This document shows positions 8,991 through 49,247 of a stretch of 64,000 nt of DNA, piece after piece. Source of the stretch: a virus; IMG/VR virus record IMGVR_UViG_3300013901_000011, positions 28,923-92,922 of that record, one strand, 5' to 3'. The first letter of the stretch is position 1, and the number at the start of each line of letters is the position of its first letter. The notes below the pieces were generated by a model, which made no database searches, was not told the DNA's origin, and saw only the letters and a program-made list of their open reading frames with translations. Both the position numbers and the translations under genes were made by a program.

Positions 8991-10935
8991 AGTATTTTTC
9001 TTTGAAATCTTTTTCCGACAAGATGGGGATACCCAATTTTTTGGCAGAAACATTCTTTGAACTAGAACTATTAACATCATTATTAATCAGAATATTAGTA
9101 TTCTTGCTAACTGAACCCACTACCTGACCGCCGCAAGATTCAATAAGTTCTTTAAGTTCGTTTCTATTCTTAAACGTATTTAATTTACCAGTAATTACAA
9201 CCTTAATACCAGACAAACTTTGAGTATGCTCTTCTTTTGGCTCTACTTCATTAAAGATGATAATACCTTTATCAACCATTTCTTTAGCTAATACATAATC
9301 AAAATTAATCAAGGCATCATGCATTTCTGGTCCAAAGCCATCCCAAAGATAAAATTTATTCACAGAATTTATATCATTAATAAAATTCTCCCAAGTCTCC
9401 TCTTTTTCAGCTATGATTTTAGCATATCTTCTACCAATTAAAGGAATTCCCAACGCCGCAATATAGTTCTCCAAATTACAGTGCCGTGCAGCTTCAATAG
9501 ATTCAAGCATCTTATCAACTGATTTAACTCCAAAACCATCTTTTTTAATCCATTCTTCCCTATGTTTTTTTAAATTAAAAATATCTTCAGCACAATTAAT
9601 CCAACCCCAATCAATTAATTTTCCAAAAGTAGCTTTAGATATTCCTTTTATATCAAGGCCCTTTTTACCCGCAAAATGTTCAATACGATTAATAAGCTTT
9701 CCATCACAATCTGGGTTCATACAAAAAAGATTAATAACTCCAGAAGCAGAAGTAATCATTTTTGTTTCACTGCCGCAAATAGGACATTTAATAGGTACTT
9801 GAAATACACCAGTAATTTCTTCTACTGGTTTTACTTCTGCTCGCACAATCTGTGGAATAATCATATTCATTTTAGCAACATATACTTTCTGACCTTTATG
9901 CGGAGTTGTTAATGTCTGCATGAGTACACTTACATTGTGCATACTAGCACGAGACACAGTTGTTCCATCTATATCTATTGGGTCAAAAATTGCAATAGGA
10001 GTTAAAATAGAAGTTCTTCCCATACTCCATTCAATATCTTGAAGCGTAGTCTCATATTCTTCATCGTAAAACTTAAAAGCATAAGCCGCTTTTGCATGAT
10101 GTCCAGTTTCACCAAGACTGGCGCCATATGTTACATCGTCAAAACGTCCAACTAAACCATCAGAAGGATAACCTAATTTCTTTGCGGTTTCAATAAGATA
10201 ATCTTTTGCATCCCAATCAAAAGAAGAAGTATAAGGTACAATAAGAAAACCTAACTTTTTCGCTGCATCTAAACGTGCCATAAAAGAATTTTCATCATAA
10301 AAACCTTTTACAACATTCCACACAACAAAAGTTAAATGACGTTTCTTACATTCGTTTGCATCTAAAAGACGAATACTACCAGAAGCAAAATTGCGAGGAT
10401 TCTTATATTCATCTTTAAACTCTTCAAAATCACCTATTGTACAAATAACTTCACCGTCAATGACCAATTCACTATCATAATCAATATACTGCGGGACTGA
10501 AGCCATTGTTAAAATATTATGAAGAACATCTTCGCCAATTTCTCCATCGCCTCTAGTCTCTGCGGAAATCAGTTTACCACCCGCATATCTCAAGCTACAT
10601 GTTAAACCATCAAGTTTGACCATTCCACAAACATCTTTTGAGGAATCTAAACCTGCAAAATAATTAAGAAACTCATCCCAATCTTTAGTTTTATCCAAAG
10701 AAAGCATTTTATGATTATGCTTAACTTTTTTAAGTTCTGATTTAACTTCATATGAAATTTTACCTGTTGGAGAACCTGGTAATGCAATACCAGATTCATC
10801 CTCAAGTTTCTTCAATTTAAAGTATAATTCATCCCATTCTTTATCTGAGACTACTGGATGCCCTTCATCATATGCTTTTGTCCACTCATTTAAAATCTGA
10901 ATCATTTCATACATCTCTTTTTCAATTTTATCCAT
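8977..10935 (-). CDS. ligA: NAD-dependent DNA ligase
   Basis: KxDG adenylation motif VCGMVKLDGLTCSL, Cys4 zinc finger CPICGSE...CMNPDC, C-terminal BRCT-like region; length 652 aa. Confidence 0.85.
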   Translation of the reverse strand: MDKIEKEMYEMIQILNEWTKAYDEGHPVVSDKEWDELYFKLKKLEDESGIALPGSPTGKISYEVKSELKKVKHNHKMLSLDKTKDWDEFLNYFAGLDSSKDVCGMVKLDGLTCSLRYAGGKLISAETRGDGEIGEDVLHNILTMASVPQYIDYDSELVIDGEVICTIGDFEEFKDEYKNPRNFASGSIRLLDANECKKRHLTFVVWNVVKGFYDENSFMARLDAAKKLGFLIVPYTSSFDWDAKDYLIETAKKLGYPSDGLVGRFDDVTYGASLGETGHHAKAAYAFKFYDEEYETTLQDIEWSMGRTSILTPIAIFDPIDIDGTTVSRASMHNVSVLMQTLTTPHKGQKVYVAKMNMIIPQIVRAEVKPVEEITGVFQVPIKCPICGSETKMITSASGVINLFCMNPDCDGKLINRIEHFAGKKGLDIKGISKATFGKLIDWGWINCAEDIFNLKKHREEWIKKDGFGVKSVDKMLESIEAARHCNLENYIAALGIPLIGRRYAKIIAEKEETWENFINDINSVNKFYLWDGFGPEMHDALINFDYVLAKEMVDKGIIIFNEVEPKEEHTQSLSGIKVVITGKLNTFKNRNELKELIESCGGQVVGSVSKNTNILINNDVNSSSSKNVSAKKLGIPILSEKDFKEKYFDFL

Positions 10936-11091: not shown

Positions 11092-13428
11092 TCATACTTT
11101 TGTTATTGAACTAATATTGCCACGTTTAATCAACTGATTTCCAACAGCATTTCTACCCTGTAAAGGAATATCTTTAGCAGAAATACAAATTGAATTTGGC
11201 ACTCCTACCAGAAGAATAGAATCTTCATCAGAAATTAAACTCGCTCCAACCACTTCACCAGATACATCAGTTGGTTTATAACAAATTAAACCTTTACCTG
11301 CACGTTTCTGTTTGATAGCTTCTTTAAGGGCAATTTTCTTTCCAAGACCCTTCTCAGAAACAATGGCAATCTGGTCGTCCTCATGACGAATAGGTAAAGC
11401 TGAAACAACTTTATCACCATCCGCAAGATTAATACCTTTCATACCCATCGTTGCACGAGAACTAGATGTAACCTCATTAGAAGTAAATCTAATCATCATA
11501 CCTTTCTTAGTAATAAGAAGAATATCTTCATCTTTGATAAGATTTACAGAAGCTAAACTATCATCTTCCCGCAAATTAATTGCCGCAAGACCAGTTTTCT
11601 TTTTAGTTTTAATATATTCTTCAAGGCTTGTTTTCTTAACAATACCATTTTTAGTTGCAAATAAGACATAATTTGCATCAGTATCTCTGTAAATGGAATA
11701 AATTAAAGTTGGCTTCTCATCACTTTCCATCTCAATAAGAGATTGTAATGACTGACCTTTAGTTGTATTTGTTCCTACTGGAATATTATCAACTAAAATA
11801 CGATACATCTTACCTTTATTTGTAAATACCATAAGAGAATCAATAGTATTTGTGCGGATAACCGCAGATACTACATCATTTTCAGTTTTGATACCCTTAC
11901 CATTTCTTCTCTGTGTGCGGAAACTAGAACTTGGAATTCTTTTAACAAGACCACCCTCAGTCATAACTACAACACATTTTTCAGGTTCTACAAATGCAAT
12001 TTCTTTCTCTTCTGGTTTAACTTCAATATGAGTTAATTCCGTTTTTCTAGAACCACCATATTTTTTTATAAGATTAAAAATATTTTCAACAAGAATATTT
12101 TTACGTTTATCAGAACTCTCAAGTAATTCAATCAGATTTGCTATAGTTGCATTTAACTCATTTAGTTCATTTTTAATTTTAATTCCATCAAGTTTTGTCA
12201 ACTGACCAATCGTCATTTTTAATACACAATCAGCTTGACGAGAAGTAAAATTCCATTTAGATATTAAGTTATTTTTTGCTTCTATTTTATCATTACTACC
12301 TCTGACTACTTCAATTATTTCATCAATATGAGCAATAGCAATTAATAAACCTTCGCATTCTTCTTTTCTTAACTCAGCTTTTTCTTTATCAAAATTATAT
12401 TCACGCATTAAACATTCATCATTGTGTTTATATAATAACTGAAAATATTTTTCAGTATTTACAAGCTGAGGAATTTTATCAATTAGTAAATTCTGGTTGG
12501 CAGAATATGATTTCTGCAAGTCAGTTTTCTTATAAAGCATTTGTAATACTTTATATGGGTCAGCTTTTTTCTCACAGATTATTTTAATATTAATTCCTTT
12601 TTTACCAGAATTATTTAAAATATCTACAACACCAGGCAATTCATCTTGGTCATAAAGCTTTTTGAAATCTTCCATAAGGTCTCTTACACAAGTCTGATAG
12701 CAAATTTCTGTAATGATAATTGCATTTTTCTCAACTTCTGCTTTAGCCCTTAAAATAACCTTGCCTTTTCCAGTTTTTAAGATAGTACCTAGCTCTTTCT
12801 GGTTAATAATTATACCACCAGAAGGAAAAGATGGACTTAAAGTATAATCCATTTCTCCTGTTTTAATATAATTAGCATAAGCTGTGGATACTTCTGCTAA
12901 ATCATAAGGTAACCATTTCTGCGCGATTGTGGTTCCAATTCCTTCACTACCGTTAATCATTAACATTGGAAGCGGAGAAGGAAGTACTTCCGGCCACTCA
13001 ACTGTCTCATCGAAGTTCATAATGAATGGAACATTTTTCTTTTTAATTCCATCAAACATTTCTAAACCAGCTTTGCTGAGTCTTACCTCAGTATAACGAC
13101 TAGAAGCTGCTTCTGGAATAATCTGATTACCATTAGAACCATGAAATTCACAAAGTGGAACATTATTTGTGAATCCTTGAGACATACGAGCAAAGGTTTC
13201 ATAAATTGCGGTGTCTCCATGCGGCCACAGCTCTGCGATAACTCCGCCGGATACTTTAGCACTTTTAACATGCGGTTTATTTGGAAGATAGCCTCGTCTA
13301 TACATTTCATATAGACAAGCTCTCTGTCCTGGCTTCAACCCATCAATCGCTGGGAAAGCTCTCTCTACATTTGTCTGATAACAATAATCCAAAAAGTCTT
13401 GTGACATCTCTTCAATAAAATCTATCAT
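11092..13428 (-). CDS. type II DNA topoisomerase subunit A (GyrA/ParC-like, T4 gp52-like)
   Basis: DGLKPGQR hallmark near N-terminus, 778 aa, directly downstream of the B-like subunit. Confidence 0.8.
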   Translation of the reverse strand: MIDFIEEMSQDFLDYCYQTNVERAFPAIDGLKPGQRACLYEMYRRGYLPNKPHVKSAKVSGGVIAELWPHGDTAIYETFARMSQGFTNNVPLCEFHGSNGNQIIPEAASSRYTEVRLSKAGLEMFDGIKKKNVPFIMNFDETVEWPEVLPSPLPMLMINGSEGIGTTIAQKWLPYDLAEVSTAYANYIKTGEMDYTLSPSFPSGGIIINQKELGTILKTGKGKVILRAKAEVEKNAIIITEICYQTCVRDLMEDFKKLYDQDELPGVVDILNNSGKKGINIKIICEKKADPYKVLQMLYKKTDLQKSYSANQNLLIDKIPQLVNTEKYFQLLYKHNDECLMREYNFDKEKAELRKEECEGLLIAIAHIDEIIEVVRGSNDKIEAKNNLISKWNFTSRQADCVLKMTIGQLTKLDGIKIKNELNELNATIANLIELLESSDKRKNILVENIFNLIKKYGGSRKTELTHIEVKPEEKEIAFVEPEKCVVVMTEGGLVKRIPSSSFRTQRRNGKGIKTENDVVSAVIRTNTIDSLMVFTNKGKMYRILVDNIPVGTNTTKGQSLQSLIEMESDEKPTLIYSIYRDTDANYVLFATKNGIVKKTSLEEYIKTKKKTGLAAINLREDDSLASVNLIKDEDILLITKKGMMIRFTSNEVTSSSRATMGMKGINLADGDKVVSALPIRHEDDQIAIVSEKGLGKKIALKEAIKQKRAGKGLICYKPTDVSGEVVGASLISDEDSILLVGVPNSICISAKDIPLQGRNAVGNQLIKRGNISSITKV

Positions 13429-15350
13429 TCTTCACTCTCCCATAAATCATTTGCTTTATTACCATTATTTAACAAGAACTGTCTTCTACCAACAACACTT
13501 GTGCCCATTAACATTTCAAGATGTTTTTCAGCTGCGATTGCATCTTCTACAACAAGCTGCTTAACATTTCTTGTTTTTGGGTCAAGAAGAACATCTGATA
13601 ACTCATCTGCATCACATTCTCCAAGACCTTTCATACGATTAACTCGGTATTTCTCTCCGATATGTTTCTGTTTATACTCTTCTAATGCTTGAGCATCTTT
13701 GATATAAATGTATTCATTTTTATTTGTTGTTATTCTAAACAATGGTGCATATGCAACATAAAAATGACCATTTATAATAAGCTCTGGACATAAACTCCAA
13801 AGATTAACTGCAATTAACATTCTAATATTTTGTCCATCTGGGTCACCATCAGTATCTGCAATAATCTTACCATAGCGTAATTTACTTTTATCATAAATTA
13901 ATTTACCTTTTTCATTAAGCTCTAAACCTAATGCTTTGATAAGGTTATTTACTTCTTGATTAGCCATTACTTTTTCATTTTTATTTTTAAAACTGTTTAT
14001 CATTTTTCCTCTAATTGGAAAGATAGCTTGATACTCAGCTATTCTTGCACCGACTAGACCTGAAGCAGCACTATCCCCCTCACAAATATGCAGTTCTGCA
14101 TCCATACGATTTTCTGTTGAACAATCAACTAATTTAGATGGGAGATTTGCCAATTTAGATTTTTTATTACCTTTTGTAGCCCTTGCGACTTCACGAGCTT
14201 TCTTTGCCGCATTTCTAGCTCTTCGCGCAAGTAACGCTTTTTCAATGATTGTTTTTACGTCTTTTGGATTCTCATTCATCCACTCAACGAAATTCACATT
14301 AATTGCTTCAAGAATAAGAGCTTTGTCAATGTCTGTTACACGCACTTTGGTCTGACTATCGTATTTAACAGATTTTGCTTTTAAGTTAAACACAATAATC
14401 AATCCTTCATTTAACTCCGCACCAGTTAGATTTGTTTCATCTTTCTTATACAACTTATTATCATTTGCATATTTATTTAATGCACGAGTTAAGTTTGCTC
14501 TAAGAGTAGTAAGATGGATACCACTTTCTACCTTACCATAATTAACATAACTTACAATATCCTCTGAATAACCAGAAGTGTAAGTCATACAAATGTCAAT
14601 CAAATCATTACCCTTGACAATATGTGCGTTAAAACGCTTTTTAATAATTTCATCATCTTTAACTTTTTTATCCACAAGGTCATTAATACCATTTTTAGAA
14701 TGAAAATCTTCTTCTTTTCCATCAACGATTAATTTAATTGTTAAAGTTGGGCTAAGAGCAGACTCTTCTTTAAATAATGTGCGGATGTCATTTAGGTTTG
14801 CTTCTGGGTTTTGAAAGAACTGCGGGTCCGGTGTATAAATGACTTTAGTACCATGAACGCCCACTTTCTCTTTGGTAATCTCTCTTTTTTGGAATAATCC
14901 ATCTTTATACCAAAGAGTCTCTCTTTGACCTTTGCCGTCAGATGTAGTAATCATTGAGCTGGATGAAAGGTAGCAGACAAGCTTCATTCCGATGCCGTTA
15001 AGTCCAAGTGCACTGCCGCCATAAATAGAATCATCAGAATCGTCATATTTTCCAGAAGTATTAATTACAGAAAAACATTCAGAAAGCATTGTCTCACCGT
15101 CTGGTCTTTCTACTCCTGGAATAAAACCTTGTGCAAAATCCTCACAGGTATATTCATTTTTCCTTGTATCCACAGTAATAACAATTTCAGTTCCATGACC
15201 GATAATATGTTCATCATGTGCATTCGCAAACAGCTCTTTTAAAAGCTGTGTGCTATATTCAGTAGAACCGCAATATGTACTAGGTCTTTTTCTTGTAAAT
15301 TCTCTAGCATCAATATGTTGCGTACTATTCTCATTATATTTTTTTGACAT
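13425..15350 (-). CDS. type II DNA topoisomerase subunit B (GyrB-like ATPase plus toprim, T4 gp39-like)
   Basis: Toprim motif ICEGDSAASG, GHKL ATPase N-terminus; likely true start MSKKYNE at 15350 (RBS AGGAAAAA) rather than 15425. Confidence 0.8.
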   Translation of the reverse strand: MSKKYNENSTQHIDAREFTRKRPSTYCGSTEYSTQLLKELFANAHDEHIIGHGTEIVITVDTRKNEYTCEDFAQGFIPGVERPDGETMLSECFSVINTSGKYDDSDDSIYGGSALGLNGIGMKLVCYLSSSSMITTSDGKGQRETLWYKDGLFQKREITKEKVGVHGTKVIYTPDPQFFQNPEANLNDIRTLFKEESALSPTLTIKLIVDGKEEDFHSKNGINDLVDKKVKDDEIIKKRFNAHIVKGNDLIDICMTYTSGYSEDIVSYVNYGKVESGIHLTTLRANLTRALNKYANDNKLYKKDETNLTGAELNEGLIIVFNLKAKSVKYDSQTKVRVTDIDKALILEAINVNFVEWMNENPKDVKTIIEKALLARRARNAAKKAREVARATKGNKKSKLANLPSKLVDCSTENRMDAELHICEGDSAASGLVGARIAEYQAIFPIRGKMINSFKNKNEKVMANQEVNNLIKALGLELNEKGKLIYDKSKLRYGKIIADTDGDPDGQNIRMLIAVNLWSLCPELIINGHFYVAYAPLFRITTNKNEYIYIKDAQALEEYKQKHIGEKYRVNRMKGLGECDADELSDVLLDPKTRNVKQLVVEDAIAAEKHLEMLMGTSVVGRRQFLLNNGNKANDLWESEE

Positions 15351-15709
15351 AAAGAATTTTTCCTTTCTCTTTATTTCTTTATATATTATATAAAAATTTT
15401 TATAAAAAATCAATAAGATTACCATTTTATCGTGAAAGCATTTTTTATTAAAATTAATTAACTGTGGAATTGCCAGAGTTAATAAAAAATATTAAAGCTA
15501 AAATTTTCCCTCAAAAGATTAGCTGTTAAAAAATTTACATTTGACTTTGAAAAAATTTTTGAGTAACATATATAAAGAAGAAGAAAAAAGAAAAAACAGG
15601 TCGAAATATTATTATATATAATTAATAATAAATATTATAATATGTTAATATAGGGCAGTTTTGGAAAAAATATGGAAAATAAATCTCCTTAAATAATAAA
15701 AACAGAGTA

Positions 15710-16766: not shown

Positions 16767-18470
16767 TTATTTCTTTCTAAGATAATTTTTAGAAGCAAAT
16801 CCAGTATAAGTCACATTTTTATAAGTAAATTGAATATAAAGCCAAACATCTCCGCCAGATACATTATAATATCCGTAGTTTTTAACTTCTGTTCCTTTTG
16901 GAACTGCTACTAAAATAGATTTTTTAGTTCCAGCACCATCTCTAACATTTAAAGTTCCACCATTAGTATTTACAACATAAGTACCTGCAAGATTTTTATT
17001 AAAAGAGTCTGCTCCTTCTTTTGCTGTAACTTTTTTAATGTTAGTTGTAGTTGTGGTTGTTTGTTGTTTTTTAGCAACATATTTATAATAAGTATTTTTT
17101 TCACAAGAAGTATAAGCGTATCCTTTAGCTGCGCCAGGCCATACAATCTTATACCAATTATTACTTGTTTTCTCAAGAACTTCAACTGCGGTTCCCGCAC
17201 TGATTGAGCCATAAGAGGTGTATGAAGTTCCATTACCGGAACGAATATTCATTTCACATAAGGCTGTTGCAGTTCCAATACCTTTGCCAGAATATGATGT
17301 ATTTCCCTGTGGTACTGTTGCTCCACCGGTGCTTGTAGAAGTTCCTGGATTAAAGTTTACGTAAGCACCTTTAGTTACATTTGTAGCTGTATGAGAACGT
17401 TCATTAAGAAGAATATCGCCAGGAAGAAGATATCCATATCCAGTAGTGTATTTACTATCTGTTAAAATAGTGAATCCCGCACGACTATATGCGGCTCTCA
17501 TATCTCCTGTATATGTTGCACTAATGGTTTGAAGTGCCGGAATACCAAGTAAATGTCCTACCGCTCTAGTATTCGCGATAACCCCAGCAGAACAATCACT
17601 TTCGCATTTCTTTGTAATTTTAGATGGGTCGTATCCAACTAATCTTAAATTGCTCCAATAGCTATCTCTTTCATATTGGTCATATCCAATATTATCATTT
17701 AAGGCTGCGGCGCAACCTAATTCTGCTAATTTAAGTCCTACTTGTGGATTTTTTGTATATCTAATTACACAATTCCATGGTCTATTATACCAAGAGCGCA
17801 GATACCATTCATCCCCTGATTGGTCTCCTGCGGTGCCACCATGATATTGACCTCTTTCATCATGCCCAGAATTAGAAATATAATGAGTTCCTTTGCTATA
17901 AATATAATTGTCATATCTTCCCATGTTAGTTACCTTACCTCCTGCATATTTATTATAATATTGTTTTCCATAGTTTGCTCTTGTGGTTTTAACGCTACTT
18001 CCTGTATTTGCTGGACACTCGAATCTTGTTAATACTATATCAGAAGCTTCTTGAACACTTTTTGCATTTTTTAATGTTTTTAATACTGTTGGATAAGTTG
18101 TAGTTAATTCTTTTACTAACCATTCTAATTGTGTGTTTTCATCACTTATTGATACACCTTTTGATTTTACTAAATCATATAAACCTGCTTTGCGACTAGG
18201 ACTAGTCCATTGACATAGACCATAACCATATTGTTTACCAGGTAAAGGATTCAAAAACGTGGCTCTAGAAATCTTACCAGAATCTATTGCCGCGGTATAA
18301 GTAGTATCATTGTAATTCTGTCCATTTTGGGAAAGTCGTTTTAGGCATAACATTTCTACTCTATTGGCTTTCATGCCAGATTCAGCATAAATGTTTCCCA
18401 TTAAACCTGCAACACCATATTCATTTCCTAGTTGCTTTAACAAATAATCCCATATGTTTTTATCTGCCAT
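16767..18470 (-). CDS. peptidoglycan hydrolase (phage lysozyme-like N-domain plus SH3-like C-terminal repeats)
   Basis: N-terminal GVAGLMGNIYAESG resembles the phage tail lysozyme family signature; C-terminal NWYKIVWPGAAKGYAYTS SH3b-like. Confidence 0.5.
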   Translation of the reverse strand: MADKNIWDYLLKQLGNEYGVAGLMGNIYAESGMKANRVEMLCLKRLSQNGQNYNDTTYTAAIDSGKISRATFLNPLPGKQYGYGLCQWTSPSRKAGLYDLVKSKGVSISDENTQLEWLVKELTTTYPTVLKTLKNAKSVQEASDIVLTRFECPANTGSSVKTTRANYGKQYYNKYAGGKVTNMGRYDNYIYSKGTHYISNSGHDERGQYHGGTAGDQSGDEWYLRSWYNRPWNCVIRYTKNPQVGLKLAELGCAAALNDNIGYDQYERDSYWSNLRLVGYDPSKITKKCESDCSAGVIANTRAVGHLLGIPALQTISATYTGDMRAAYSRAGFTILTDSKYTTGYGYLLPGDILLNERSHTATNVTKGAYVNFNPGTSTSTGGATVPQGNTSYSGKGIGTATALCEMNIRSGNGTSYTSYGSISAGTAVEVLEKTSNNWYKIVWPGAAKGYAYTSCEKNTYYKYVAKKQQTTTTTTNIKKVTAKEGADSFNKNLAGTYVVNTNGGTLNVRDGAGTKKSILVAVPKGTEVKNYGYYNVSGGDVWLYIQFTYKNVTYTGFASKNYLRKK

Positions 18471-18523: not shown

Positions 18524-19771
18524 TTACATTAATTCTGCTTGTTCAGCTATTTTACTTCTATAGATTTTTTGTAATTCAATTTCACCATAATAATCGCAAC
18601 CTCTGAACACTTCAGACATTTTCCGCATACCATTATTTGCGCCACTATATAAAATTGAATCTACTTGATGTTTAGTATCTCCGTCAATAATACAAATACT
18701 ATCTTCTCCAATACGCTGGAGGGCAAGTCTCATTAATTCAACACTTAAATTTTGAGCTTCTGTAATATATATACCTGCATTTAATCCAGTAGTATCGAAA
18801 CCACGCAAATCAGACATAGGCAATAACATAAGTTTTCTATCAGTAATTAATCTTTCTACCTCGATTCTATCACCAAGTTTACTAGAAAGCATATTACCTA
18901 TCTGTGAATCTAATAACTTGTCATTCTTATCACCTGGGTAATATCCAAGTTTTGCTGCACCCTGCGCGGCGATTGTATTACAGAATACTATAATTTTATC
19001 TATTTTTCGCTTTTCAAGCTGCTCAAATAGAAATCCGAGGCTTAAATAGCTCTTACCAGAACCCGCACGTCCTTGAATCATTGTAATCTGATTATTATTA
19101 AAAGATTCTAAAGCCGCACATTGGTAAGCATCTTTTGGAGTAATTTTACCAAACATATAACTTTCTGTTTTATAATACTGAAATTGTTCAAAACCATTTT
19201 CAGTTCTTTTATATTTATCTATTATTTCTCCTTGTGGATTTTTAATAAATAAATATTCATTAATTAAGCAACCAAATTTTTCAGAAATTTCTTTATCAAA
19301 TAGGTCTGCATAAATTTGTGCTAATTCTTCATCGGAAGAATATGTAATTTCTTTAAAGCCAGTATAATCATCTGTACTTTCTTCTGCAACTGAAACTATA
19401 TGCTCGTCATCAAAAAAGATTGTAGCTAATGATTTTAAGCACAAATCATTAGAACAAAAATAAATTTCGTCAGGATAATTATAAGCAGAAATTAAGATTC
19501 TACTATCATTATTATCTGGTAAATTATATTTTTTAATTAATTCAGATAAATCATAATAAATATCAGTAATGAACTTTCCTTTATTTTTATCTAAAATTCT
19601 AGTTAAATGTCTCGCGGCGTATTTAACGTCGGCATCTTTTTTATCAGAATTTTTTATATCTTCCAATTCCCGCAATGAAACTGAAGAAATAATTACTTGT
19701 TCTTCTGGATTATCAAATAAAGTATCTGCTGTTAATAGTAGACTACAAGTATCATAATAGATATTTTTCAT
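18524..19771 (-). CDS. phoH: PhoH-like ATPase with N-terminal PIN domain
   Basis: Walker A GRAGSGKSYLSLG, PhoH-like C-terminal region, N-terminal MKNIYYDTCSLL PIN-like. Confidence 0.75.
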   Translation of the reverse strand: MKNIYYDTCSLLLTADTLFDNPEEQVIISSVSLRELEDIKNSDKKDADVKYAARHLTRILDKNKGKFITDIYYDLSELIKKYNLPDNNDSRILISAYNYPDEIYFCSNDLCLKSLATIFFDDEHIVSVAEESTDDYTGFKEITYSSDEELAQIYADLFDKEISEKFGCLINEYLFIKNPQGEIIDKYKRTENGFEQFQYYKTESYMFGKITPKDAYQCAALESFNNNQITMIQGRAGSGKSYLSLGFLFEQLEKRKIDKIIVFCNTIAAQGAAKLGYYPGDKNDKLLDSQIGNMLSSKLGDRIEVERLITDRKLMLLPMSDLRGFDTTGLNAGIYITEAQNLSVELMRLALQRIGEDSICIIDGDTKHQVDSILYSGANNGMRKMSEVFRGCDYYGEIELQKIYRSKIAEQAELM

Positions 19772-20019
19772 TCGTCTTCTTCTGCCTCGCTTTCGTCCTC
19801 TTCTACTATTGGTTCTGTAACAAAACCTATTGAATTAGAAGCGGTTTCCTGTGGTTGAGTTGCTTTTTCATAATCGGCTCGTAATTTAGCTACTTGAACT
19901 TGCATTTTTCCTTTTTCAACTTCGCACTTTTGGAGTACTAAGCTAGAAATAGAATTAAGTAATCCAAGTCCTACTTCTGCTGTAAACATGCCAAGTAAGA
20001 AATATTTTAATTTATTCAT
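19768..20019 (-). CDS. small membrane protein
   Basis: 83 aa, N-terminal hydrophobic segment, acidic C-terminus; overlaps phoH start. Confidence 0.35.
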   Translation of the reverse strand: MNKLKYFLLGMFTAEVGLGLLNSISSLVLQKCEVEKGKMQVQVAKLRADYEKATQPQETASNSIGFVTEPIVEEDESEAEEDE

Positions 20020-20067: not shown

Positions 20068-20493
20068 TTATTTCTGACCTTTATTACGATTGCGCCTGAT
20101 TTTTTGGTAAAATTTGTCCTTTTCTGTAATGTATTCTGCTAAAGCGCTTTTCATCTCTTTAAGTGAATTTTCATTTTCTTGAATATCTTTTTCTCTTCTT
20201 CTTATTTCTCTTATAAGTAAATGAGTTTCACGAACGTCTTTATTGTAATAAGGATTAAATTTAAGTAGGCTATGAAAATCTTTTAAAGCCTTTAATTCTC
20301 TTTTGGAATCTTTAATCAAATGTTTTAAAAATTTAATATTGGCGCGAGTTTCTGCAATCTGTAATCCAGTCTTTTCACTCATCATGTCTGTGTCTTCTGG
20401 ATGACAGTGAGCCTCGCCAGTATAAATAGTTCCATCATTATCTATAATAATACATCTAGCGATTCCGTCATTATATGTGTAAGATGTTTTCAT
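20068..20493 (-). CDS. hypothetical protein
   Basis: 141-aa ORF with RBS GGAGATATATTATATG. Confidence 0.35.
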   Translation of the reverse strand: MKTSYTYNDGIARCIIIDNDGTIYTGEAHCHPEDTDMMSEKTGLQIAETRANIKFLKHLIKDSKRELKALKDFHSLLKFNPYYNKDVRETHLLIREIRRREKDIQENENSLKEMKSALAEYITEKDKFYQKIRRNRNKGQK

Positions 20494-20621
20494 ATAATAT
20501 ATCTCCTTTATTTTATTAAAAAATTATACAATAAAATAAGGTAATTATCAAATTTAGATATTTTGCTTAAAAAATTTGTATAGGCGAGTGGAAACCAACA
20601 AGCGGACCTGACGCTAAATGC

Positions 20622-20660
20622 GGGTATTAAAAAAGGAGACCTACGAATAGGTCTCCTTGT
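20622..20660 (-). terminator. rho-independent terminator after flotillin gene
   Basis: Minus strand AAGGAGACC-TATTCGTA-GGTCTCCTT then TTTTTAATACC. Confidence 0.55.
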
Positions 20661-20662
20661 AA

Positions 20663-22204
20663 TTATTCATTTACATCTGTTTCTTTGAAAGACTCAATAG
20701 CTTTTGTTCCAAGAACACCAGCTAAAAGAGATTTAACATCAATACCAAGAGATTCACTTAATCCCTCAGATACCTGAGTTACATTTGTCATAATATCTCC
20801 TGCTAGTTTGGAAGTATCTCCACCAAGCATTACAATTTTATCAACGTTTGTATACCCTTTACCAACAGCCTCAGCAATAGCAGGTAACTGCTCGAAGTAA
20901 AGTTTGAGTGCCTGCAACTGCATGTCCTGCTTAGCGGCCTCGCCATACTGTTTCATAGCTTCTGCTTTCTTCTGAAGACCTTCAGCCTCAGCTTCAAGTT
21001 TTGCTCTAATTGCGGCAGCTTCTGCCTCACCTTTTGCTCTAGCTGCAGCCGCATCAGCTTCACCCTGTGCTTTTACTGCATCCGCAAGTGCTTTCTTAGC
21101 TTCAGAATCTCTCTGTGCTTCTGCAAGAGACGCTTCTGCCTGTTTTGTTCTCTCGAACAACTCAGCTTCAGATTTCTTCTGAGTTTCATACAGTTTTGCA
21201 TCAGCTCTCTGCTGTGCTGCATATTTTTCAGCTTCTGCGGTTTTCTTAACTTCAGCTTCCAGAGCACGTTCTTTAATAGCTACTTCTCTCTCTTTTAACT
21301 CAATCTGTTTCTCTTGACGAGCAATGTCTGCTTCAGTAGCAGCAACGTCTTTAATCTGACGCTGTTTCTCATCCTCGATAGCTTTTGCTGCATCAGCCTG
21401 CGCTTTGCGGGTATCCGCACTTTTCTTTAAATCTGCCTGTTTGATTTCAAATTCGTTGTTACGAACTGCAATCTGTTCAGCAGCTGCAACCTTAGCATCA
21501 TTAGCTTCTTTGGAGTTCTGAGCTTCTGCGATAGCTACTTCTCTTTCAGCATTGGATTTTGCAATAGCGGCGTTTTTAGAAATCTGCGCCATATTGTCCT
21601 GACCAAGAGCAGTGATAAGATTTTTCTCATCTTCTAACTTCTGAATATTACAGGATTCAATCCAAATACCAAGAGCGTTCATGTCTTTCTGCGCTTTTGC
21701 CTGAACTTCATCTCCAAAGGCTTTACGGTCATTACATAACTGTTTTAATTCCTGGGTTCCAATAATTTCTCGCATATTACCCTGTAAAGAATCCTGTAAA
21801 GACTGTTCAATCTGCTCTTTAGACATATTAAGGAAGTTCTTCATTGCTGCGGCAACCATCTCAGGTGTAATACCTTTTTCTTCATCATTGAGGTCATTCT
21901 CAGTAAGAACTCTTACTTTTGCTACTGCGTCAATGTTTACACCAATAAAGTCTTTAGTTGGAATATAACCATTTGTTTTGATGTCAATAGACATCTGACG
22001 CAAGGTTAAGGTATCCATTCTTTCAAAGAAAGGAATCTTAATACCGGCTTTACCAATCAGGATTCGAGGCTCTTTGTGAAAACCAGAAATAATGTAAGCT
22101 GTATCCGGCGGAGCTTTAACATATCCTGAAGCAATTACTGCGATAATGACAACCGCAAGTAAAACAAAAGGTACAAACGGTAAGATAGTTGTTAGAAAAT
22201 TCAT
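20663..22204 (-). CDS. SPFH/band-7 (flotillin-like) membrane protein
   Basis: N-terminal TM helix, SPFH core (YVKAPPDTAYIISGF...), long EA-rich coiled-coil typical of bacterial flotillins (FloT/YuaG-like). Confidence 0.75.
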   Translation of the reverse strand: MNFLTTILPFVPFVLLAVVIIAVIASGYVKAPPDTAYIISGFHKEPRILIGKAGIKIPFFERMDTLTLRQMSIDIKTNGYIPTKDFIGVNIDAVAKVRVLTENDLNDEEKGITPEMVAAAMKNFLNMSKEQIEQSLQDSLQGNMREIIGTQELKQLCNDRKAFGDEVQAKAQKDMNALGIWIESCNIQKLEDEKNLITALGQDNMAQISKNAAIAKSNAEREVAIAEAQNSKEANDAKVAAAEQIAVRNNEFEIKQADLKKSADTRKAQADAAKAIEDEKQRQIKDVAATEADIARQEKQIELKEREVAIKERALEAEVKKTAEAEKYAAQQRADAKLYETQKKSEAELFERTKQAEASLAEAQRDSEAKKALADAVKAQGEADAAAARAKGEAEAAAIRAKLEAEAEGLQKKAEAMKQYGEAAKQDMQLQALKLYFEQLPAIAEAVGKGYTNVDKIVMLGGDTSKLAGDIMTNVTQVSEGLSESLGIDVKSLLAGVLGTKAIESFKETDVNE

Positions 22205-22257
22205 AAATTCTTTTCTCCTTTTTATTTAGTTTTCAATGTACTTATTTATTCAAAAAG

Positions 22258-22824
22258 CTACATAGCTCTTTGTTCGTTAAATTTTGCTTTCATATCTTCA
22301 ATAATTGTATCTAAAGAAACTGGAAAGCAATTATGAGCATCAACTGCTACGTTATAAAGATATGGAATATTTTCATAAAATTTTTCTTTTGAATGTGTGT
22401 GTCCCGAAATCCCGCAGGTAACTTGATGAAGAGATTCAATTTCTCCATTACTTGTTACTGTTGGATAATGGCTTAAATAAAAATGATATTTTCTATATTT
22501 AAGCATCATAGCATATCCTTCATCAATAATGCCGATTTCAGAGTAAAGGCGGCATCGAGTCTGGGTGTCATGATTTCCATGAATGAAATGTTTAATTCCA
22601 TTTAATTGCTGCAAACATTCAAGACCATGTTCATTGTCATTTAACATTAAATCTCCTAAAAGATATAAGTCATCTTCTGGAGTTACGATTGAATTGCAAT
22701 TTTTAATAATTGCTTTATCATGTTCTTCAATCGAAGTAAAACCTCGTGCTTCATAGACAAATGGTTTTGAATGGCCCAGGTGTAAATCACTCATCAGGTA
22801 AATCAACTGTAACGCCTCCTTCAT
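22258..22824 (-). CDS. calcineurin-like metallophosphoesterase
   Basis: DLHLGH, GDLMLND, GNHD, GHTH motifs; stop/start overlap (ATGAGTGA) with upstream kinase gene. Confidence 0.65.
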   Translation of the reverse strand: MKEALQLIYLMSDLHLGHSKPFVYEARGFTSIEEHDKAIIKNCNSIVTPEDDLYLLGDLMLNDNEHGLECLQQLNGIKHFIHGNHDTQTRCRLYSEIGIIDEGYAMMLKYRKYHFYLSHYPTVTSNGEIESLHQVTCGISGHTHSKEKFYENIPYLYNVAVDAHNCFPVSLDTIIEDMKAKFNEQRAM

Positions 22825-23320
22825 TTACTCGAATAATTGCTGAATATTTATACTTCTCAATAAAAGTAGGTTTCTCGAACTGCTCATTCATTCTACGAAT
22901 AACACTTCGTGGAACATAAGCAAGTTTATCGTCTCTCCTTAGTTCATTTCTTTGCAAACAAGTTTCAAGAAGATTTTCAAAACTTATTGGAACAATTCTT
23001 ACATTATCAAGATTTAAACTATCAAGTAATTTATTTCTTGATTTCTGCGTAAGTTGTGTAGCATCTGCTATAATATAATCAACACCTTCATTAATGTATT
23101 TCTGAATAGTTTCAATATATTCTTTCCAAACTTCTTTTTCTCTATCAAAATACTGAGAGTTTTCATCTTCTTGAAGTTTAGCAAAACGAATAATATCTCT
23201 TGATACTATTTCAAGTTCATAATCACCTTTTAAGTATTGCTTTGCATTTTCTTTTGAGTCGCGGAACCAAGTAGATTTTCCAGAACCAGGAATTCCGCAT
23301 CCAACATATAAAGTTGTCAT
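22787..23320 (-). CDS. P-loop polynucleotide kinase-like protein
   Basis: Walker A GCGIPGSGKST at N-terminus, ~177 aa, translationally coupled to a phosphoesterase (split Pnkp-like arrangement). Confidence 0.55.
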   Translation of the reverse strand: MTTLYVGCGIPGSGKSTWFRDSKENAKQYLKGDYELEIVSRDIIRFAKLQEDENSQYFDREKEVWKEYIETIQKYINEGVDYIIADATQLTQKSRNKLLDSLNLDNVRIVPISFENLLETCLQRNELRRDDKLAYVPRSVIRRMNEQFEKPTFIEKYKYSAIIRVNEGGVTVDLPDE

Positions 23321-23321: not shown

Positions 23322-23591
23322 TTAAATCAACTCTCCCTTTAAATATTCTAAACTTTCTTCTAATTCTTCTTTAAAAACGCCATCCTCAAAATCCTGTTTG
23401 AACTGAAATACATCTTCATCATTTCTACATTCAACATGATTTACTTCAATCCTACAATGCGGACAATACATTTTTTTTCTATGAAATCTAGCTTTCTGCC
23501 CACCCTTTTTTCTTGGCAAATCATAGCTTTTATTGCCACATTTCATGCAATAAAAGCTATTAAATACGATATTATTGTTTCTTCTTCCCAT
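23322..23591 (-). CDS. zinc-ribbon protein
   Basis: CMKCGN ... CPHCRIE Cys4 pattern. Confidence 0.4.
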   Translation of the reverse strand: MGRRNNNIVFNSFYCMKCGNKSYDLPRKKGGQKARFHRKKMYCPHCRIEVNHVECRNDEDVFQFKQDFEDGVFKEELEESLEYLKGELI

Positions 23592-23658
23592 TTCTTTTCT
23601 TTTCCTTATCTTTATTTGATAAATATATTATATAATATTTTTAATAATTTATCAATAA

Positions 23659-26178: not shown

Positions 26179-27561
26179 TTACATTTCACTCAGCAAATCT
26201 TCAGATACATTATCAGTTTCTCCAGAAGCTTCAGCCTGAGCCACAGCAATTCCAGATAAACATTTAAAGTCATAATTTTTGTGCTTATATGCGGCAAATC
26301 CTGGACGATTCAGAATTCTGCATACAACACCTTCCCGCACATGAGTTTTACCTACTGGGTCTGGACCATCATAGTATTTCTCTGCGATTTCTTTAATATA
26401 TTCTCCTGGATTTACTTCCTCTGGAATAAAGCCTCTCCACAGAAGTGGAACACATTTAACTCCCATCTGTTCACAACGATAACGCATAAAGTCTGGAGTA
26501 TATTCTACTACATCACCATCTTCATTTGTAGTTGTCATACGGTAAACGTATAAATCAGATTTTTTGTTATCTGGGTCACAGCCATAAGAGAATACAGTTT
26601 CTTCTCCATACTGTTTGATAAATTCTTTATTATTTAACTTTTTATTGCTAGCTTTTGGCATGATTGGAACACCATCATCAGTAAAACCAACAATTTCATA
26701 ATAAACAGTTTCGTCTTTATGAAGTTTTCCCTCAAAGACTTTTTCGTGCTTTTCTCTAAACTCATTGGAGCCATAAAAACCACCATCGAAGGAATCTAAT
26801 ACGGTTCTGCGGGTTCCAGATACAAGACCCCAATCGTATTTAGGTTTGCTATGCTTATCGAAGTAAGCAACCATAGCTTTCTGCAATTTATTGAGTTTTC
26901 TATCTCGGTCTTTAATTTCACAGAAAACCGCAAGTACATTTGTTGGAACAATATCCACTAATCTTGGTAGATATCCAGTTCTACCAGAAGTACCGTGCAT
27001 TTTAAGAGTAATCTCCACAAGGTCACCATTTTTAAAAGCTCCCATATTATAAGCAAGCTGCTCTGTGTCAGCATGTTCAACAAAAAGTGGAGCGATTGGT
27101 ACTTTCTTTTTGCGGGTTTTATTTACTCTATTATCAGCAGAGTGATGTTTGCGGATAGGAATATATTTCTTACAAATTTCATGTCCATTCAAAGTAGTAA
27201 CAGTATCACCAATATTGAGTTCGTCAAGGTTGATTCCTGTATAAACTACACATTTAAGAGGAAGAAACAAGCCATCAGATTTTTCACCTCTTAACCGCAC
27301 AGCAGTAACATTTCTTTTCTTTGGGTCCATATATCCAGTATCTGGAGTACCATCTGGTTTCTTTCTCAGGAGATGATTCTCAAGGCAAAATTCCTCAGAA
27401 AGCTGAAGGTCTACTGGAAAATAAATACCAATCTCACCCATAGTAATATCAAGAGAAACGCAAGTGTCATTTCCAAAGAAAGTAGCAATATTTAATCGGT
27501 CAGCATTTGGATGTTTTCTCAGTTCATTTACTTTTACTACATAACCGCAATGTTCAGACAT
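26179..27561 (-). CDS. ATP-dependent RNA ligase (Rnl2-like KxHG nucleotidyltransferase) with N-terminal tRNA-binding OB-like domain
   Basis: N-terminal KHPNADRL motif typical of Trbp111/EMAP-II tRNA-binding fold; ITLKMHGTSG resembles Rnl2 motif I KxHG. Confidence 0.5.
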   Translation of the reverse strand: MSEHCGYVVKVNELRKHPNADRLNIATFFGNDTCVSLDITMGEIGIYFPVDLQLSEEFCLENHLLRKKPDGTPDTGYMDPKKRNVTAVRLRGEKSDGLFLPLKCVVYTGINLDELNIGDTVTTLNGHEICKKYIPIRKHHSADNRVNKTRKKKVPIAPLFVEHADTEQLAYNMGAFKNGDLVEITLKMHGTSGRTGYLPRLVDIVPTNVLAVFCEIKDRDRKLNKLQKAMVAYFDKHSKPKYDWGLVSGTRRTVLDSFDGGFYGSNEFREKHEKVFEGKLHKDETVYYEIVGFTDDGVPIMPKASNKKLNNKEFIKQYGEETVFSYGCDPDNKKSDLYVYRMTTTNEDGDVVEYTPDFMRYRCEQMGVKCVPLLWRGFIPEEVNPGEYIKEIAEKYYDGPDPVGKTHVREGVVCRILNRPGFAAYKHKNYDFKCLSGIAVAQAEASGETDNVSEDLLSEM

Positions 27562-28421: not shown

Positions 28422-29246
28422 TTATTCCGCCTTTTCTTTTTTCTTTTCTAATTCCTTAAATACTTCTACTGCTTTCTGGTAATTATCTCCATGTACTGAA
28501 TCTGGAATTGCATATATTACCTGTTTAAAATTTTTTCTTTCATCGGCAAGATACTTATTAAACAAAGTAATAACTTCTGTTGCATCCTGACCAAATACGC
28601 CACATCCAAAAGCTCCAAGAATAAGTGTATCTACTCCTTCTCTTGCGGCGATGTCAAGAACAAATTTAATGCGGCTTTCCAAAATTTTGGAATTTTCTTC
28701 CGCAGTAATTCCATATCCATATTTTTTGTTTGGTGTAAGATTTGGAGCTGCACAAGTAATTACATTGATAAACTCTTGGTCATCTCCCTGTTCAAACATA
28801 ATATGTGGAGAAAAAATAGCTCTATTCTCATACATTGCTTTATTAAGATGTTTATTATTCCAATCATAGTAATAATCAAACTCTCTTAATACGTTATATA
28901 AATAAGAATTCTGGCATAAACACTCTTCCTGAGCTCTTGAGCCTTGAAGAAAGCCGCCTCCTGGATTCTTATATGAAGCAAAATTTAAAACACAAATGGT
29001 TCCTTTACCAAAAGTTTTTCTTGCTTTAAAGATTGCTTCAACGCTTCCAACATCCCACAGATAAACTGGCATATTCTCACGATACAAAGGATGTGGAACA
29101 TAAGTATTTCCAGTATAAACATGGCTATTCTTTTTTGCATAAACAATATCTTCTTTATATTTATGAGCCATATCTAAAGTTCTTTTCTTAGCAGTTTCTG
29201 CTCTGCCTTGACGATTACCATCCCAATAATATTTAATTTTGCCCAT
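28422..29246 (-). CDS. bacterial-type poly(ADP-ribose) glycohydrolase-like macrodomain protein (DUF2263/PARG-like)
   Basis: TICVLNFASYKNPGGGFLQGSRAQEE carries the PARG signature GGG-X7-QEE. Confidence 0.6.
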   Translation of the reverse strand: MGKIKYYWDGNRQGRAETAKKRTLDMAHKYKEDIVYAKKNSHVYTGNTYVPHPLYRENMPVYLWDVGSVEAIFKARKTFGKGTICVLNFASYKNPGGGFLQGSRAQEECLCQNSYLYNVLREFDYYYDWNNKHLNKAMYENRAIFSPHIMFEQGDDQEFINVITCAAPNLTPNKKYGYGITAEENSKILESRIKFVLDIAAREGVDTLILGAFGCGVFGQDATEVITLFNKYLADERKNFKQVIYAIPDSVHGDNYQKAVEVFKELEKKKEKAE

Positions 29247-47629: not shown

Positions 47630-48099
47630 ATATTTAAGTCGCGTGAGAAAGATTTGCACTTTCCTAATAGCCTTATCCTCATTCTTTCAGGTTTGCCATT
47701 CTATCATGTTAATCTTAACTAGCCACCAGCTAACACTTCAAGCAATAACCATACTTAAAATTTACTATCCAGCCCTGTCTCAACAGCCCTACCTATTCAC
47801 CTCATCCAAAAGCTAGTCTTAATTTAGAAGCAGAAATAGCTGTGCACGCGATAATGTTTAGTATTTAATGTGCTGTTACGCCAAAAGGGAAATTGTCCTT
47901 ACCAATTACGGGGTGACGCATTTTAACTCTTTACATCCCATCCTTTTACTCTTTTATCTTCAAAAGAAGTTTTTCATACTTTCGGATTTAAAGCCCTACT
48001 CTTTAAAGGATGGCTGCTTTTAAGCCTACCTTTTAAATACTAACAGACTAGAATATGTGCGATTTGAACGCCGCCTCGAGCTCCAGAGAACAATGTCTA

Positions 48100-48870
48100 T
48101 TAAATTTTACTCCATTCTTCATCAGTATACATCTTTATTTCTGTTTTTTTACTAGGTAAATTTTCTGCTTTACACCATTTTCTAATAGCATTATCAGATA
48201 CACCGTATTTTTCTCCTATACTTAAAAAAGATTCATTTCTAATCAAATCTTTCAACTCCTCTCTATTAGGTCTTTCAACAGAACGAGTTGTTTTTGTATA
48301 ACATTCTAAACATAATCCAGATTTAGAACATGAACTAATTTGCTTACCGCAAGAAGAACAATAATAAATTTTTTCTTCTTTCGGTGCAGTTCTTTTTTCA
48401 AAATTTTCTTTTGAAAATATTAGCTCATCAGAATAATTAATTATTTTTTCAATTTCATAATCTTCAGCTTTATTATAATTATTATTACCATTCTGAGGAG
48501 GACTAAAACGTAATGTTTTACTTGTTGAACACTCCTCAACAGGTATTAAATAAACCTGACCTTTATAATAAGTAGCAAAATAATCAATTTGTTCTTTGGT
48601 ATAAAGATGTCTTACTGTTTTTTGAGTGTTTGTTGTTTGAGACATAGTTGTTATCTGAATTGCAGATGTATCATAACCACCCGCAGCTCCTTTTGATTTT
48701 GGATTAGAGCATGATTTACATTGTATTCGTAAAAATTCTCCATTTACATCAGCAACAAAATCATATTTAGCTCCATTACCATAAGGAATAGAAACTTCAT
48801 ATCCCAATTCAATAAATTTTGAAATACATTGCAATTCTACAATATTTCCAATAGATTGCGTATAATTCAT
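48100..48870 (-). CDS. putative homing endonuclease (PD-(D/E)xK-like N-domain plus shared C-terminal DNA-binding module)
   Basis: C-terminal KDLIRNESFLSIGEKYGVSDNAIRKWC is near-identical to the C-terminus of the GIY-YIG endonuclease at 54605-55372; N-terminal YDFVADVNGEFLRIQCK fits D-E-K nuclease core; embedded in tRNA field. Confidence 0.5.
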   Translation of the reverse strand: MNYTQSIGNIVELQCISKFIELGYEVSIPYGNGAKYDFVADVNGEFLRIQCKSCSNPKSKGAAGGYDTSAIQITTMSQTTNTQKTVRHLYTKEQIDYFATYYKGQVYLIPVEECSTSKTLRFSPPQNGNNNYNKAEDYEIEKIINYSDELIFSKENFEKRTAPKEEKIYYCSSCGKQISSCSKSGLCLECYTKTTRSVERPNREELKDLIRNESFLSIGEKYGVSDNAIRKWCKAENLPSKKTEIKMYTDEEWSKI

Positions 48871-49147
48871 AATTCGCTATTCATTTTAATAGATTTGCTT
48901 TCCAAAGCCCGCGTGCTACCATTACACCACATACTCTTTATTGGAGTAGACTATTGCGAACTTGCCGTCTACCATGGCGACTCATTTAATTTATTATCCG
49001 CAGTGACATAACTGTGGAATTGTGTGGGTGCGGTTATGCCTAGGTTCATCCCTTTACCCCGGAGGCTATAGTGCAGGCACCATTTCCTCTGTGTCCCTCA
49101 AACCCTCGTTCGAGTACCGTTCACCGCATTTAATAAAGGTTTTTCAA

Positions 49148-49229
49148 AGCTCGGGGTGGGATTCGAACCCACGAGGGATTTCTCCGGCAGATTACAAATC
49201 TGCTACCATCGCCGCTAGGTGACCCGAGC
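49148..49229 (-). tRNA. tRNA with anticodon TGT (Thr-like) but a 14-nt variable arm
   Basis: Acceptor GCTCGGG/CCCGAGC, anticodon stem-loop GCAGA TTTGTAA TCTGC, variable region CGGAGAAATCCCTC, T-arm GTGGGTTCGAATCCCAC. Confidence 0.55.
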
Positions 49230-49247
49230 AAAAATTAAGGCGAGTTT

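Follow-up and report, generated by a model that had tools for sequence, protein, structure and literature searches.

Why would a phage carry a gene for a flotillin? Bacteria build membrane cages from flotillin; such SPFH cages are structurally understood, and their physiological role in bacteria is debated. We analyzed a stretch of 64,000 nt from the virus record IMGVR_UViG_3300013901_000011 (hereafter the window), in which one open reading frame (ORF) reads as a flotillin. An earlier note on this DNA had described the ORF as phage-encoded and as unusual cargo for a phage. We asked if the ORF encodes a flotillin, if it belongs to the phage, and what it might do there. Read from its sequence, the ORF is a genuine full-length flotillin with a membrane anchor, an SPFH domain, Ala/Glu-rich helices and a flotillin C-terminus, and a chance resemblance is ruled out. 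We further propose, giving the idea about an even chance, that the gene may be stable phage cargo serving a generic need for an SPFH protein, with maintenance of the membrane through a long infection as the most economical function.

The ORF is predicted to encode a full-length flotillin

The earlier note had attributed to the ORF a full-length FloT-like protein with a transmembrane (TM) anchor, an SPFH domain and a coiled coil of EA repeats, and had named a hidden Markov model (HMM) search for Band_7 and Flot as the check. That search supports the SPFH assignment. Pfam Band_7/SPFH (PF01145) matched residues 30-220 with an E-value of 1.9e-21 (77.4 bits, cut-off 23.6), and Pfam Flot (PF15975) matched residues 382-462 at E 9.6e-7, barely above its cut-off (29.4 against 27 bits). 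The marginal Flot score is corroborated by the alignment of the phage protein to residues 307-419 of flotillin-1. The NCBIfam FloT model (NF058507) was covered almost entirely, at 52-474 of its 477 positions, with a score of 206.3 bits, where the FloT equivalog assignment begins at ≥700 bits. The description as full length and FloT-like is therefore borne out, and strict FloT equivalence is not; by the NCBIfam cut-off, the predicted protein is a member of the flotillin family and not a FloT orthologue. The best sequence match in the PDB was human flotillin-1 (cage structures 9l3g and 9bq2, E 1e-45), aligned over residues 32-337 and 379-493.

The anchor and the EA-repeat helices were recovered as well. 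Residues 3-27 are the sole strongly hydrophobic segment of the protein (Kyte-Doolittle 19-residue mean above 1.6, maximum 3.06) and are helical in an AlphaFold2 (AF2) model at residues 3-7 and 10-25. In residues 221-440, Ala makes up 26%, Glu 15% and Lys 13%; the region has 16 EA and 12 AE dipeptides and is free of proline. The AF2 monomer was made from a shallow alignment of 27 sequences, with a predicted local distance difference test score (pLDDT) of 60 and a predicted template modeling score (pTM) of 0.32, and was used for local fold matches only; at this low confidence it shows the expected topology, with two long helices at residues 196-316 and 325-448. Foldseek searches with the model placed the flotillin complexes 9l3g and 9bq2 at the top (E 1e-19), followed by HflK/C, stomatin, prohibitin, erlin and QmcA, and then by major vault protein (MVP; E 1e-6). 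The flotillin HMM found no second flotillin in the window.

The locus exchanges one SPFH protein for another

The strongest evidence for what is selected at this locus comes from one sublineage, in which the flotillin gene has been replaced precisely. On either side of a non-homologous segment, 1.0 kb long in contig L200 and 1.6 kb in contig L189, the DNA of the two contigs is 94-96% identical. In L189 the segment is the flotillin gene (7509-9116), and in L200 it is a gene (8070-9117) for a protein of 323 amino acids (aa); replacement by a protein of the same type was found in L201 (5147-6118) and L219 (1775-2746). Besides a Band_7 domain (E 4e-27), the replacement protein has a TM segment; it lacks the Flot domain, is nearest to prohibitin, QmcA and HflK, and does not resemble the flotillin significantly (E 0.06). 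Because this is a non-orthologous swap within the SPFH superfamily, we infer that selection acts on a generic SPFH scaffold function.

Substitution patterns were compared between the window and its close relatives. The ratio of nonsynonymous to synonymous substitution rates (dN/dS) of the flotillin gene is 0.03-0.12, alongside 0.04-0.05 for PhoH and 0.02-0.13 for the RNA ligase, so that purifying selection on the flotillin is as strong as on these two phage genes; the phosphoesterase and the kinase encoded in the flotillin operon gave 0.16-0.22 and 0.29-0.40, respectively. GC content at third codon positions (GC3) is 0.29 in the flotillin gene, compared with 0.15-0.24 in neighboring replication and repair genes and 0.61-0.65 in chromosomal Waltera flotillins, and the gene is thus largely ameliorated to the base composition of the phage. 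The low dN/dS together with the drifted GC3 therefore speaks for a functional gene that is neither a recent capture nor an assembly artefact.

These results bear directly on the possibility that the gene does not belong to a phage, being instead misassembled host DNA or part of a mislabeled bacterial contig. The flotillins of some IMG/VR matches (L022, L036 and L046) do nest among bacteria, L022 shares just a ligase gene with the window, and small GenBank "phage" records that match at 25-28% identity may be host fragments. Nevertheless, dozens of assemblies, made independently from different samples and sources, have this gene in the same slot, its GC3 is far from that of the host-type gene, purifying selection acts within the phage lineage, and the promoter and terminator architecture is phage-specific. 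We consider a host origin of this DNA effectively refuted.

The flotillin recurs in a fixed slot of its phage family

Among deposited phages the flotillin is rare: 8 of 50,697 GenBank records held a match, with an identity of 51% at most and in no case annotated, and megablast of the 8 kb around the gene against GenBank phages returned no match. Matches were likewise found in 8 of 72,556 plasmid records. No SPFH family in PHROGs was matched by the protein; a PHROGs match to tape-measure proteins was set aside as spurious, since it involved the coiled coil only. The description of the gene as unusual cargo therefore holds for deposited phages but not within its own phage family, where the flotillin occupies a slot between a phosphoesterase gene and a PhoH-PIN gene in contigs from ENA, Logan, JGI and IMG/VR, at identities from 98% to about 44%. 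To describe slot occupancy, 80 IMG/VR relatives were anchored on PhoH-PIN, 62 of which had sufficient upstream DNA to be judged. The flotillin was in the slot in 36 of these 62 relatives and missing from it in the other 26, proportions that are descriptive only. No SPFH protein is encoded near PhoH in Alicyclobacillus phage KKP_3916, the nearest cultured PhoH-PIN relative.

The borders of the slot are well defined. The phosphoesterase gene lies directly upstream of the flotillin gene in the relatives with gene tables and served as the left marker in the PhoH-anchored sample. On the right, the order of a 141-aa protein, a TM protein of about 80 aa and PhoH-PIN is common to relatives with and without flotillin. 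Homologues of the 141-aa and 83-aa proteins of the window are both present in most inspected relatives, with a few lacking one or the other, and neither protein has a Pfam or NCBIfam match. Apart from SPFH genes, the slot holds a nucleobase permease gene or nothing; the permease case is L196 (6747-8024), where the product is a 425-aa protein of the xanthine/uracil permease family (Pfam E 8e-82). An 88-109-aa polytopic membrane protein was considered as alternative cargo or a holin and was dropped, as flotillin-positive genomes encode homologues of it at other places. Between divergent relatives the flotillin ranks with the best conserved proteins: between the window and L004 it is 71% identical, compared with 41% for gyrase A, 34% for gyrase B and 49% for PhoH.

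A slot at the end of an operon that is polymorphic for flotillin, another SPFH protein, a permease or nothing resembles the style of a moron. It could be taken to suggest superinfection exclusion or counter-defense, in which the cage would shield the membrane from DNA injection by a competitor or from membrane-disrupting effectors of abortive infection. Membrane repair does involve SPFH proteins and the dynamin DynA, and the latter also has an effect on phage lysis (PMC8581546, PMC8844932). However, the flotillin matched none of the defense families in PADLOC-DB at E ≤ 0.01, the literature searched contained no link between SPFH proteins and anti-phage defense, and strong conservation with deep phage-only clades is unlike defense cargo of fast turnover. 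We give this explanation a small chance.

The protein appears to be a mosaic of a host-like head and a phage-lineage body

The closest cellular homologues are flotillins of Lachnospiraceae (Waltera and Acetatifactor), at 63-67% identity overall. One flotillin of this type was found in an ordinary chromosomal neighborhood with ligA and type IV pilus genes. Waltera-type flotillins with 66-67% identity to that of the window also occur on two ENA human-gut contigs (L009 and L127) in contexts that resemble mobile elements, with TraG/DUF87 ATPases, DNA methylases, SLT and many small ORFs; on L127, a second Band_7 protein is encoded 2 kb upstream of the flotillin.

Overall identity hides two different histories. 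The SPFH head (residues 30-215) is 73-78% identical to bacterial Lachnospiraceae flotillins and 47-52% identical to phage clades B and C, whereas the coiled coil and C-terminus (residues 225-513) are 79-87% identical to phage clade B and about 61% identical to Waltera. In trees built by domain, the window head clusters with bacterial sequences (bootstrap 91) and the window body falls inside an all-phage clade (bootstraps 85 and 94). In the comparison of the window with L004, synonymous divergence (dS) is 0.98 for the body, and the head, at about 2.1, is close to saturation; because dS itself differs between the two parts, module exchange is favored over mere unequal constraint. In whole-gene neighbor-joining trees the placement of the window clade was unstable, with bootstraps from 26 to 74, as expected because the domains are mosaic. 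By these comparisons, the window flotillin is mosaic, joining an SPFH head of host type to a body from a phage lineage.

The same kind of shuffling is seen across the family, where five combinations are formed from at least three types of head and two of body, with a junction near residues 215-225. The head types among phage flotillins share only 30-52% identity. Shuffled flotillins were seen in L004, L008, L023, L040, L152, L167, L179, L218 and others. A database search with the phage-type SPFH head recovered for the most part short, unnamed fragments from metagenomes, along with a few partial proteins labeled as from metagenome-assembled genomes, at 59-80% identity.

A head close to host flotillins on a phage-type body also fits a takeover of the host by mimicry. 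The head would engage clients of the host flotillin (FtsH, signaling kinases or secretion) or co-assemble with the host protein, and host microdomains would be redirected or poisoned, with division or differentiation blocked, for example, instead of simply maintained. The head is the most variable module, which fits adaptation to different host clients; hetero-oligomers are common in the superfamily, and the flotillin-1/2, HflK/C, PHB1/2 and erlin1/2 complexes are among the fold matches; and in Bacillus subtilis an excess of flotillin stabilizes FtsH and disturbs division and differentiation (PMC3892786). On the other hand, the very low dN/dS is not the signature of an arms race, and the swap to a prohibitin-like protein of unrelated sequence argues against one specific host partner. 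Takeover by mimicry has, in our view, a modest chance of being right.

The flotillin gene ends a four-gene transcription unit

The flotillin gene is the last of four tightly packed genes, following those for a Cys-rich protein, a kinase and the phosphoesterase (Table 1). The Cys-rich protein had weak Pfam matches only. A sigma-70-like promoter sequence precedes the first gene, and between it and the hairpin beyond the flotillin stop (position 20658) we found no convincing terminator on the minus strand, the one weak site (20745-20769) lying inside the flotillin gene. We conclude that this promoter is the likely start of the four-gene unit. A hairpin followed by a T-run was present after the flotillin stop in 11 of 12 inspected relatives, L008 being the one without it. 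The stem of the window is kept in the closest relatives, and other stem sequences occur in L001, L004, L007, L012, L023 and L028. Because the stems differ in sequence among these six more distant relatives, the hairpin is considered a real terminator. The promoter sequence of the next unit is conserved in close relatives.

The company of the gene is informative about a role in the virion or its assembly. SPFH proteins were detected in virion preparations of Eneladusvirus and of RisingSun-type Erwinia phages (PMC7760394, PMC6034870), and the flotillin could by analogy be a virion component. The gene is located, however, among genes for replication, repair and nucleotide metabolism, behind a host-type promoter and with no structural genes nearby; its product has a membrane anchor, and the homologues close to it in cells are flotillins of the ordinary chromosomal kind. 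A virion role is therefore very unlikely.

A proposed role in membrane maintenance

We return to the proposal that the flotillin serves a generic SPFH need of the phage. During infection the protein would be made from a host-type promoter and its N-terminal helix would insert it into the cytoplasmic membrane. The EA-rich helices would then drive oligomerization into a flotillin-type dome that fences off a patch of membrane, a step predicted because the protein is homologous to solved cages. Flotillin dosage in the infected cell would rise, and membrane fluidity, membrane integrity and flotillin-dependent machines (secretion, wall synthesis and FtsH) could be kept working through the long cycle of a large phage, preventing premature failure of the envelope. 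Membrane fluidity in B. subtilis is set by flotillins (PMC7360373), an excess of flotillin there has the effects described above, and PspA is connected to the membrane through an SPFH protein (PMC8581546).

Several observations weigh against this proposal. The 26 relatives without flotillin have no SPFH gene of any kind in the slot, and neither do the cultured relatives that were found; because so many relatives do without one, the SPFH function would have to be dispensable or host-dependent. The sampled relatives were picked by peptide patterns and include many near-identical contigs of one metagenome. The promoter call is a consensus match in a region where promoter-like sites are not enriched over shuffled sequence, and the monomer model is poor. 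Pfam scans found no NfeD domain in the operon genes or in both downstream genes, and the inspected chromosomal Waltera-type flotillin locus is also without NfeD. Finally, no virion structural or packaging genes are present in the 64-kb window or the fetched flanks, so the assignment to a phage is strong but indirect.

An MVP-like protein is encoded nearby

The earlier note had also pointed to an MVP-like protein within 15 kb and, as the MVP shoulder domain is itself SPFH-like, had counted two SPFH-related scaffolds. An ORF for an MVP-like protein does lie 10.6 kb from the flotillin gene. The likeness of MVP to SPFH holds structurally, in the Foldseek matches of the flotillin model to vaults, but not by sequence, since profile-profile comparison of the two window proteins gave a coiled-coil match only (probability 18%). 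The link between the two scaffolds rests on fold similarity and literature because sequence comparison found no homology.

The MVP-like gene was detected in 12 of 36 flotillin-positive contigs and in none of 26 flotillin-negative contigs (Fisher p = 7e-4, kinship ignored), with detection relying on two short peptide patterns in contigs many of which are incomplete. A functional link between flotillin and MVP is possible and weakly supported. One form of it would be a single system, such as a particle resembling a vault that assembles on, or is tethered to, a membrane patch marked by flotillin. The two genes share the window and co-occur across contigs, and the flotillin model folds like solved vaults. 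In contrast, the genes belong to separate transcription units, no MVP is detectable in entire clades of flotillins (the 72% and 63% groups, on contigs of 140-196 kb), the co-occurrence is uncorrected for phylogeny and limited by the detection patterns, and the profile comparison aligned nothing beyond coiled coil. A single flotillin-MVP system is thus quite improbable.

In a broader reading, which we think improbable, these gut phages build a membrane compartment of their own from SPFH shells and the flotillin dome would be a phage-specified organelle instead of a housekeeping helper. Under that reading, the dome may act in some lineages with the MVP-like shell and a neighboring DUF2828/DUF7788 protein; it may sequester FtsH, another host factor or a defense effector that acts on membranes, or may be a platform on which phage replication or assembly takes place; and interchangeable SPFH heads may tune the dome to different hosts.

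Phage MVPs from human-gut metagenomes have been described before in a preprint (10.1101/2023.11.10.566534), which reports no TEP1 or vPARP homologues. MVP-like proteins with 40-43% identity are also encoded in "uncultured phage" genomes of 462-735 kb (LR756501.1, 17368-19590; LR756500.1, 20952-23363), the 43% homologue being in the 735-kb uncultured phage LR756501, and phage MVPs thus extend to huge phages. In the window, the MVP-like gene is 1.8 kb downstream of the DUF2828+DUF7788 gene; a TROVE/Ro60 identity for the product of the latter was unconfirmed by sequence searches of PDB or NCBIfam.

The window belongs to a large phage of gut Bacillota

Every gene in the window is on the minus strand, and nearly all sizeable ORFs have phage-family matches in PHROG and domain searches. 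The matches include primase, DnaB, a Sak4-like protein, NAD ligase, gyrase A and B, RNase H, RNA ligase, PhoH-PIN, an endolysin with SH3 domains, a sigma factor and homing endonucleases, and 21 tRNA genes are present. Within the genome of a large tailed phage of Bacillota, the window represents the arm for replication and nucleotide metabolism. Contigs in IMG/VR of 92-178 kb encode a flotillin 97-98% identical to that of the window, and a 184-kb ENA contig with about 1,500-fold coverage encodes a protein identical to one of the window. The nearest cultured PhoH-PIN homologues are in phages of 140-170 kb that infect Bacillus, Geobacillus, Alicyclobacillus and Enterococcus. The phage assignment is based on gene content, the tRNAs, the IMG/VR classification and the likeness to large Bacillota phages, and agrees with the earlier description of the protein as phage-encoded. 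We conclude that the carrier is a tailed phage of about 180 kb that infects gut Bacillota, and the host is probably a member of the Lachnospiraceae. Two cell-wall hydrolases with SH3 domains, one with Phage_lysozyme2 and an endolysin-like domain and the other with NlpC/P60 and 3D, are consistent with a Gram-positive host.

The tRNA genes form an array (38693-57953, minus strand) mixed with short ORFs, homing-endonuclease-like genes and the phage sigma factor gene. Gyrase B is intact in the window (13425-15425) and is encoded as two ORFs in some relatives (L007, 16915-19943; L008, 16404-18608); in L007, a gene for a GIY-YIG homing endonuclease lies between the two halves.

Table 1. Coordinates of the flotillin gene, its parts and the surrounding features of the window
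Feature	Position	Strand	Basis or remark
Flotillin-family coding sequence, 513 aa + stop codon	20663..22204	-	ATG-to-stop ORF
Predicted N-terminal hydrophobic membrane anchor, residues 3-27	22124..22198	-	hydropathy, AF2 helices
SPFH/Band_7 domain, residues 30-220, host-like module	21545..22117	-	Pfam, per-domain identities, domain tree
Ala/Glu/Lys-rich helical (coiled-coil) region, residues 221-440, phage-lineage module	20885..21544	-	composition, AF2, identities
C-terminal region, residues 441-513	20666..20884	-	Pfam Flot (382-462), flotillin-1 alignment
Shine-Dalgarno AGGAG, 10 nt before ATG	22215..22219	-	read from sequence
Sigma-70-like promoter, TTGATA-17-TATAAT, 11/12 matches	23627..23655	-	promoter scan
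Cys-rich small protein, 89 aa, first gene of unit	23322..23591	-	ORF; conserved in relatives
P-loop kinase AAA_33, second gene of unit	22787..23320	-	Pfam E 1e-18; syntenic in relatives
Metallophosphoesterase phrog_547, left slot border	22258..22824	-	PHROG E 6e-41
Intrinsic terminator hairpin, 11 bp stem then T-run	20633..20658	-	starts 5 nt past flotillin stop
Sigma-70-like promoter of next unit, 11/12 matches	20523..20551	-	promoter scan
Conserved protein, 141 aa, coiled-coil-rich, right slot border	20068-20493	-	ORF
TM-plus-acidic-tail protein, 83 aa, right slot border	19768-20019	-	ORF
PhoH-PIN, right slot border	18524-19771	-	PhoH + PIN_4 domains
MVP-like protein, 823 aa	32767-35238	-	Pfam MVP_shoulder 5.3e-21, Vault_3 3.2e-8
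DUF2828+DUF7788 protein, 522 aa	37069-38637	-	phrog_850 "RNA-binding protein"
PARG, near MVP-like gene	28422-29246		
RNA ligase, near MVP-like gene	26179-27561		
Nucleotidyltransferase, near MVP-like gene	31545-32324		
Homing-endonuclease-like genes	48100-48870; 7300-8289	-	
Phage sigma factor	51693-52601	-	
Cell-wall hydrolases, two	16767-18470; 39033-40592	-	SH3 domains

Significance and comparison with known systems

This family of abundant gut phages seems to need a membrane scaffold of its own. Selection, module shuffling and an SPFH swap at one locus amount to a natural experiment, which suggests that generic SPFH activity is useful in infection, and one phage gene offers a compact handle on what a membrane cage does. 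Control of membrane microdomains is a possible layer of the interaction between phages and their hosts in the Lachnospiraceae. If ordinary membrane maintenance proves to be the function, the flotillin gene would be an auxiliary gene derived from the host and of a kind uncatalogued in PHROGs.

The nearest known relatives are the flotillins of Lachnospiraceae and FloT (YuaG) of B. subtilis, which have the same anchor, SPFH domain, EA-rich helices and Flot C-terminal domain. Unlike bacterial flotillins, the phage protein is encoded in a phage operon with phage-like codon composition and has the body of a phage-only lineage. It also differs from bacterial FloT in that its gene is without the NfeD partner seen in the YuaF-FloT and YbbJ-QmcA pairs, and in its score of 206 against 700 bits. 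The eukaryotic flotillin complex is made of two paralogues and is not known to attach to the membrane through an N-terminal helix of this kind. Eukaryotic flotillin-1 and flotillin-2 (9BQ2, 9L3G) are homologous to the phage protein across the SPFH, helical and C-terminal parts and provide the model for a membrane-attached dome, although identity is about 25% and the phage has a single gene, whose product has an N-terminal hydrophobic helix.

HflK/C-FtsH, QmcA-YbbJ, prohibitin, stomatin and erlin have the SPFH fold and cage-forming helices in common with the phage flotillin. Unlike these other cages, the phage protein has a Flot domain and flotillins as its best matches, and its gene is not adjoined by a paralogue partner or by an NfeD or FtsH gene. 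Major vault protein is soluble and is not known to have a membrane anchor. Its fold is akin to SPFH with a long helix, and it was matched by the flotillin model (9z4w and 9r86).

SPFH proteins have been annotated in other phages, namely RaK2-like phages, Eneladusvirus and Erwinia phage RisingSun (PMC7760394, PMC6034870). Those proteins are phage-encoded like the flotillin described here, but they belong to jumbo myoviruses that infect Gram-negative bacteria, were detected in virions by mass spectrometry, and are so distant that the flotillin did not match them in the GenBank phage search. The present protein, by comparison, is of the full FloT type, close to host flotillins, and encoded in a slot of the replication module. 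Rather than founding a new kind of system, the phage gene adds a new member, carried by a phage, to the flotillin family.

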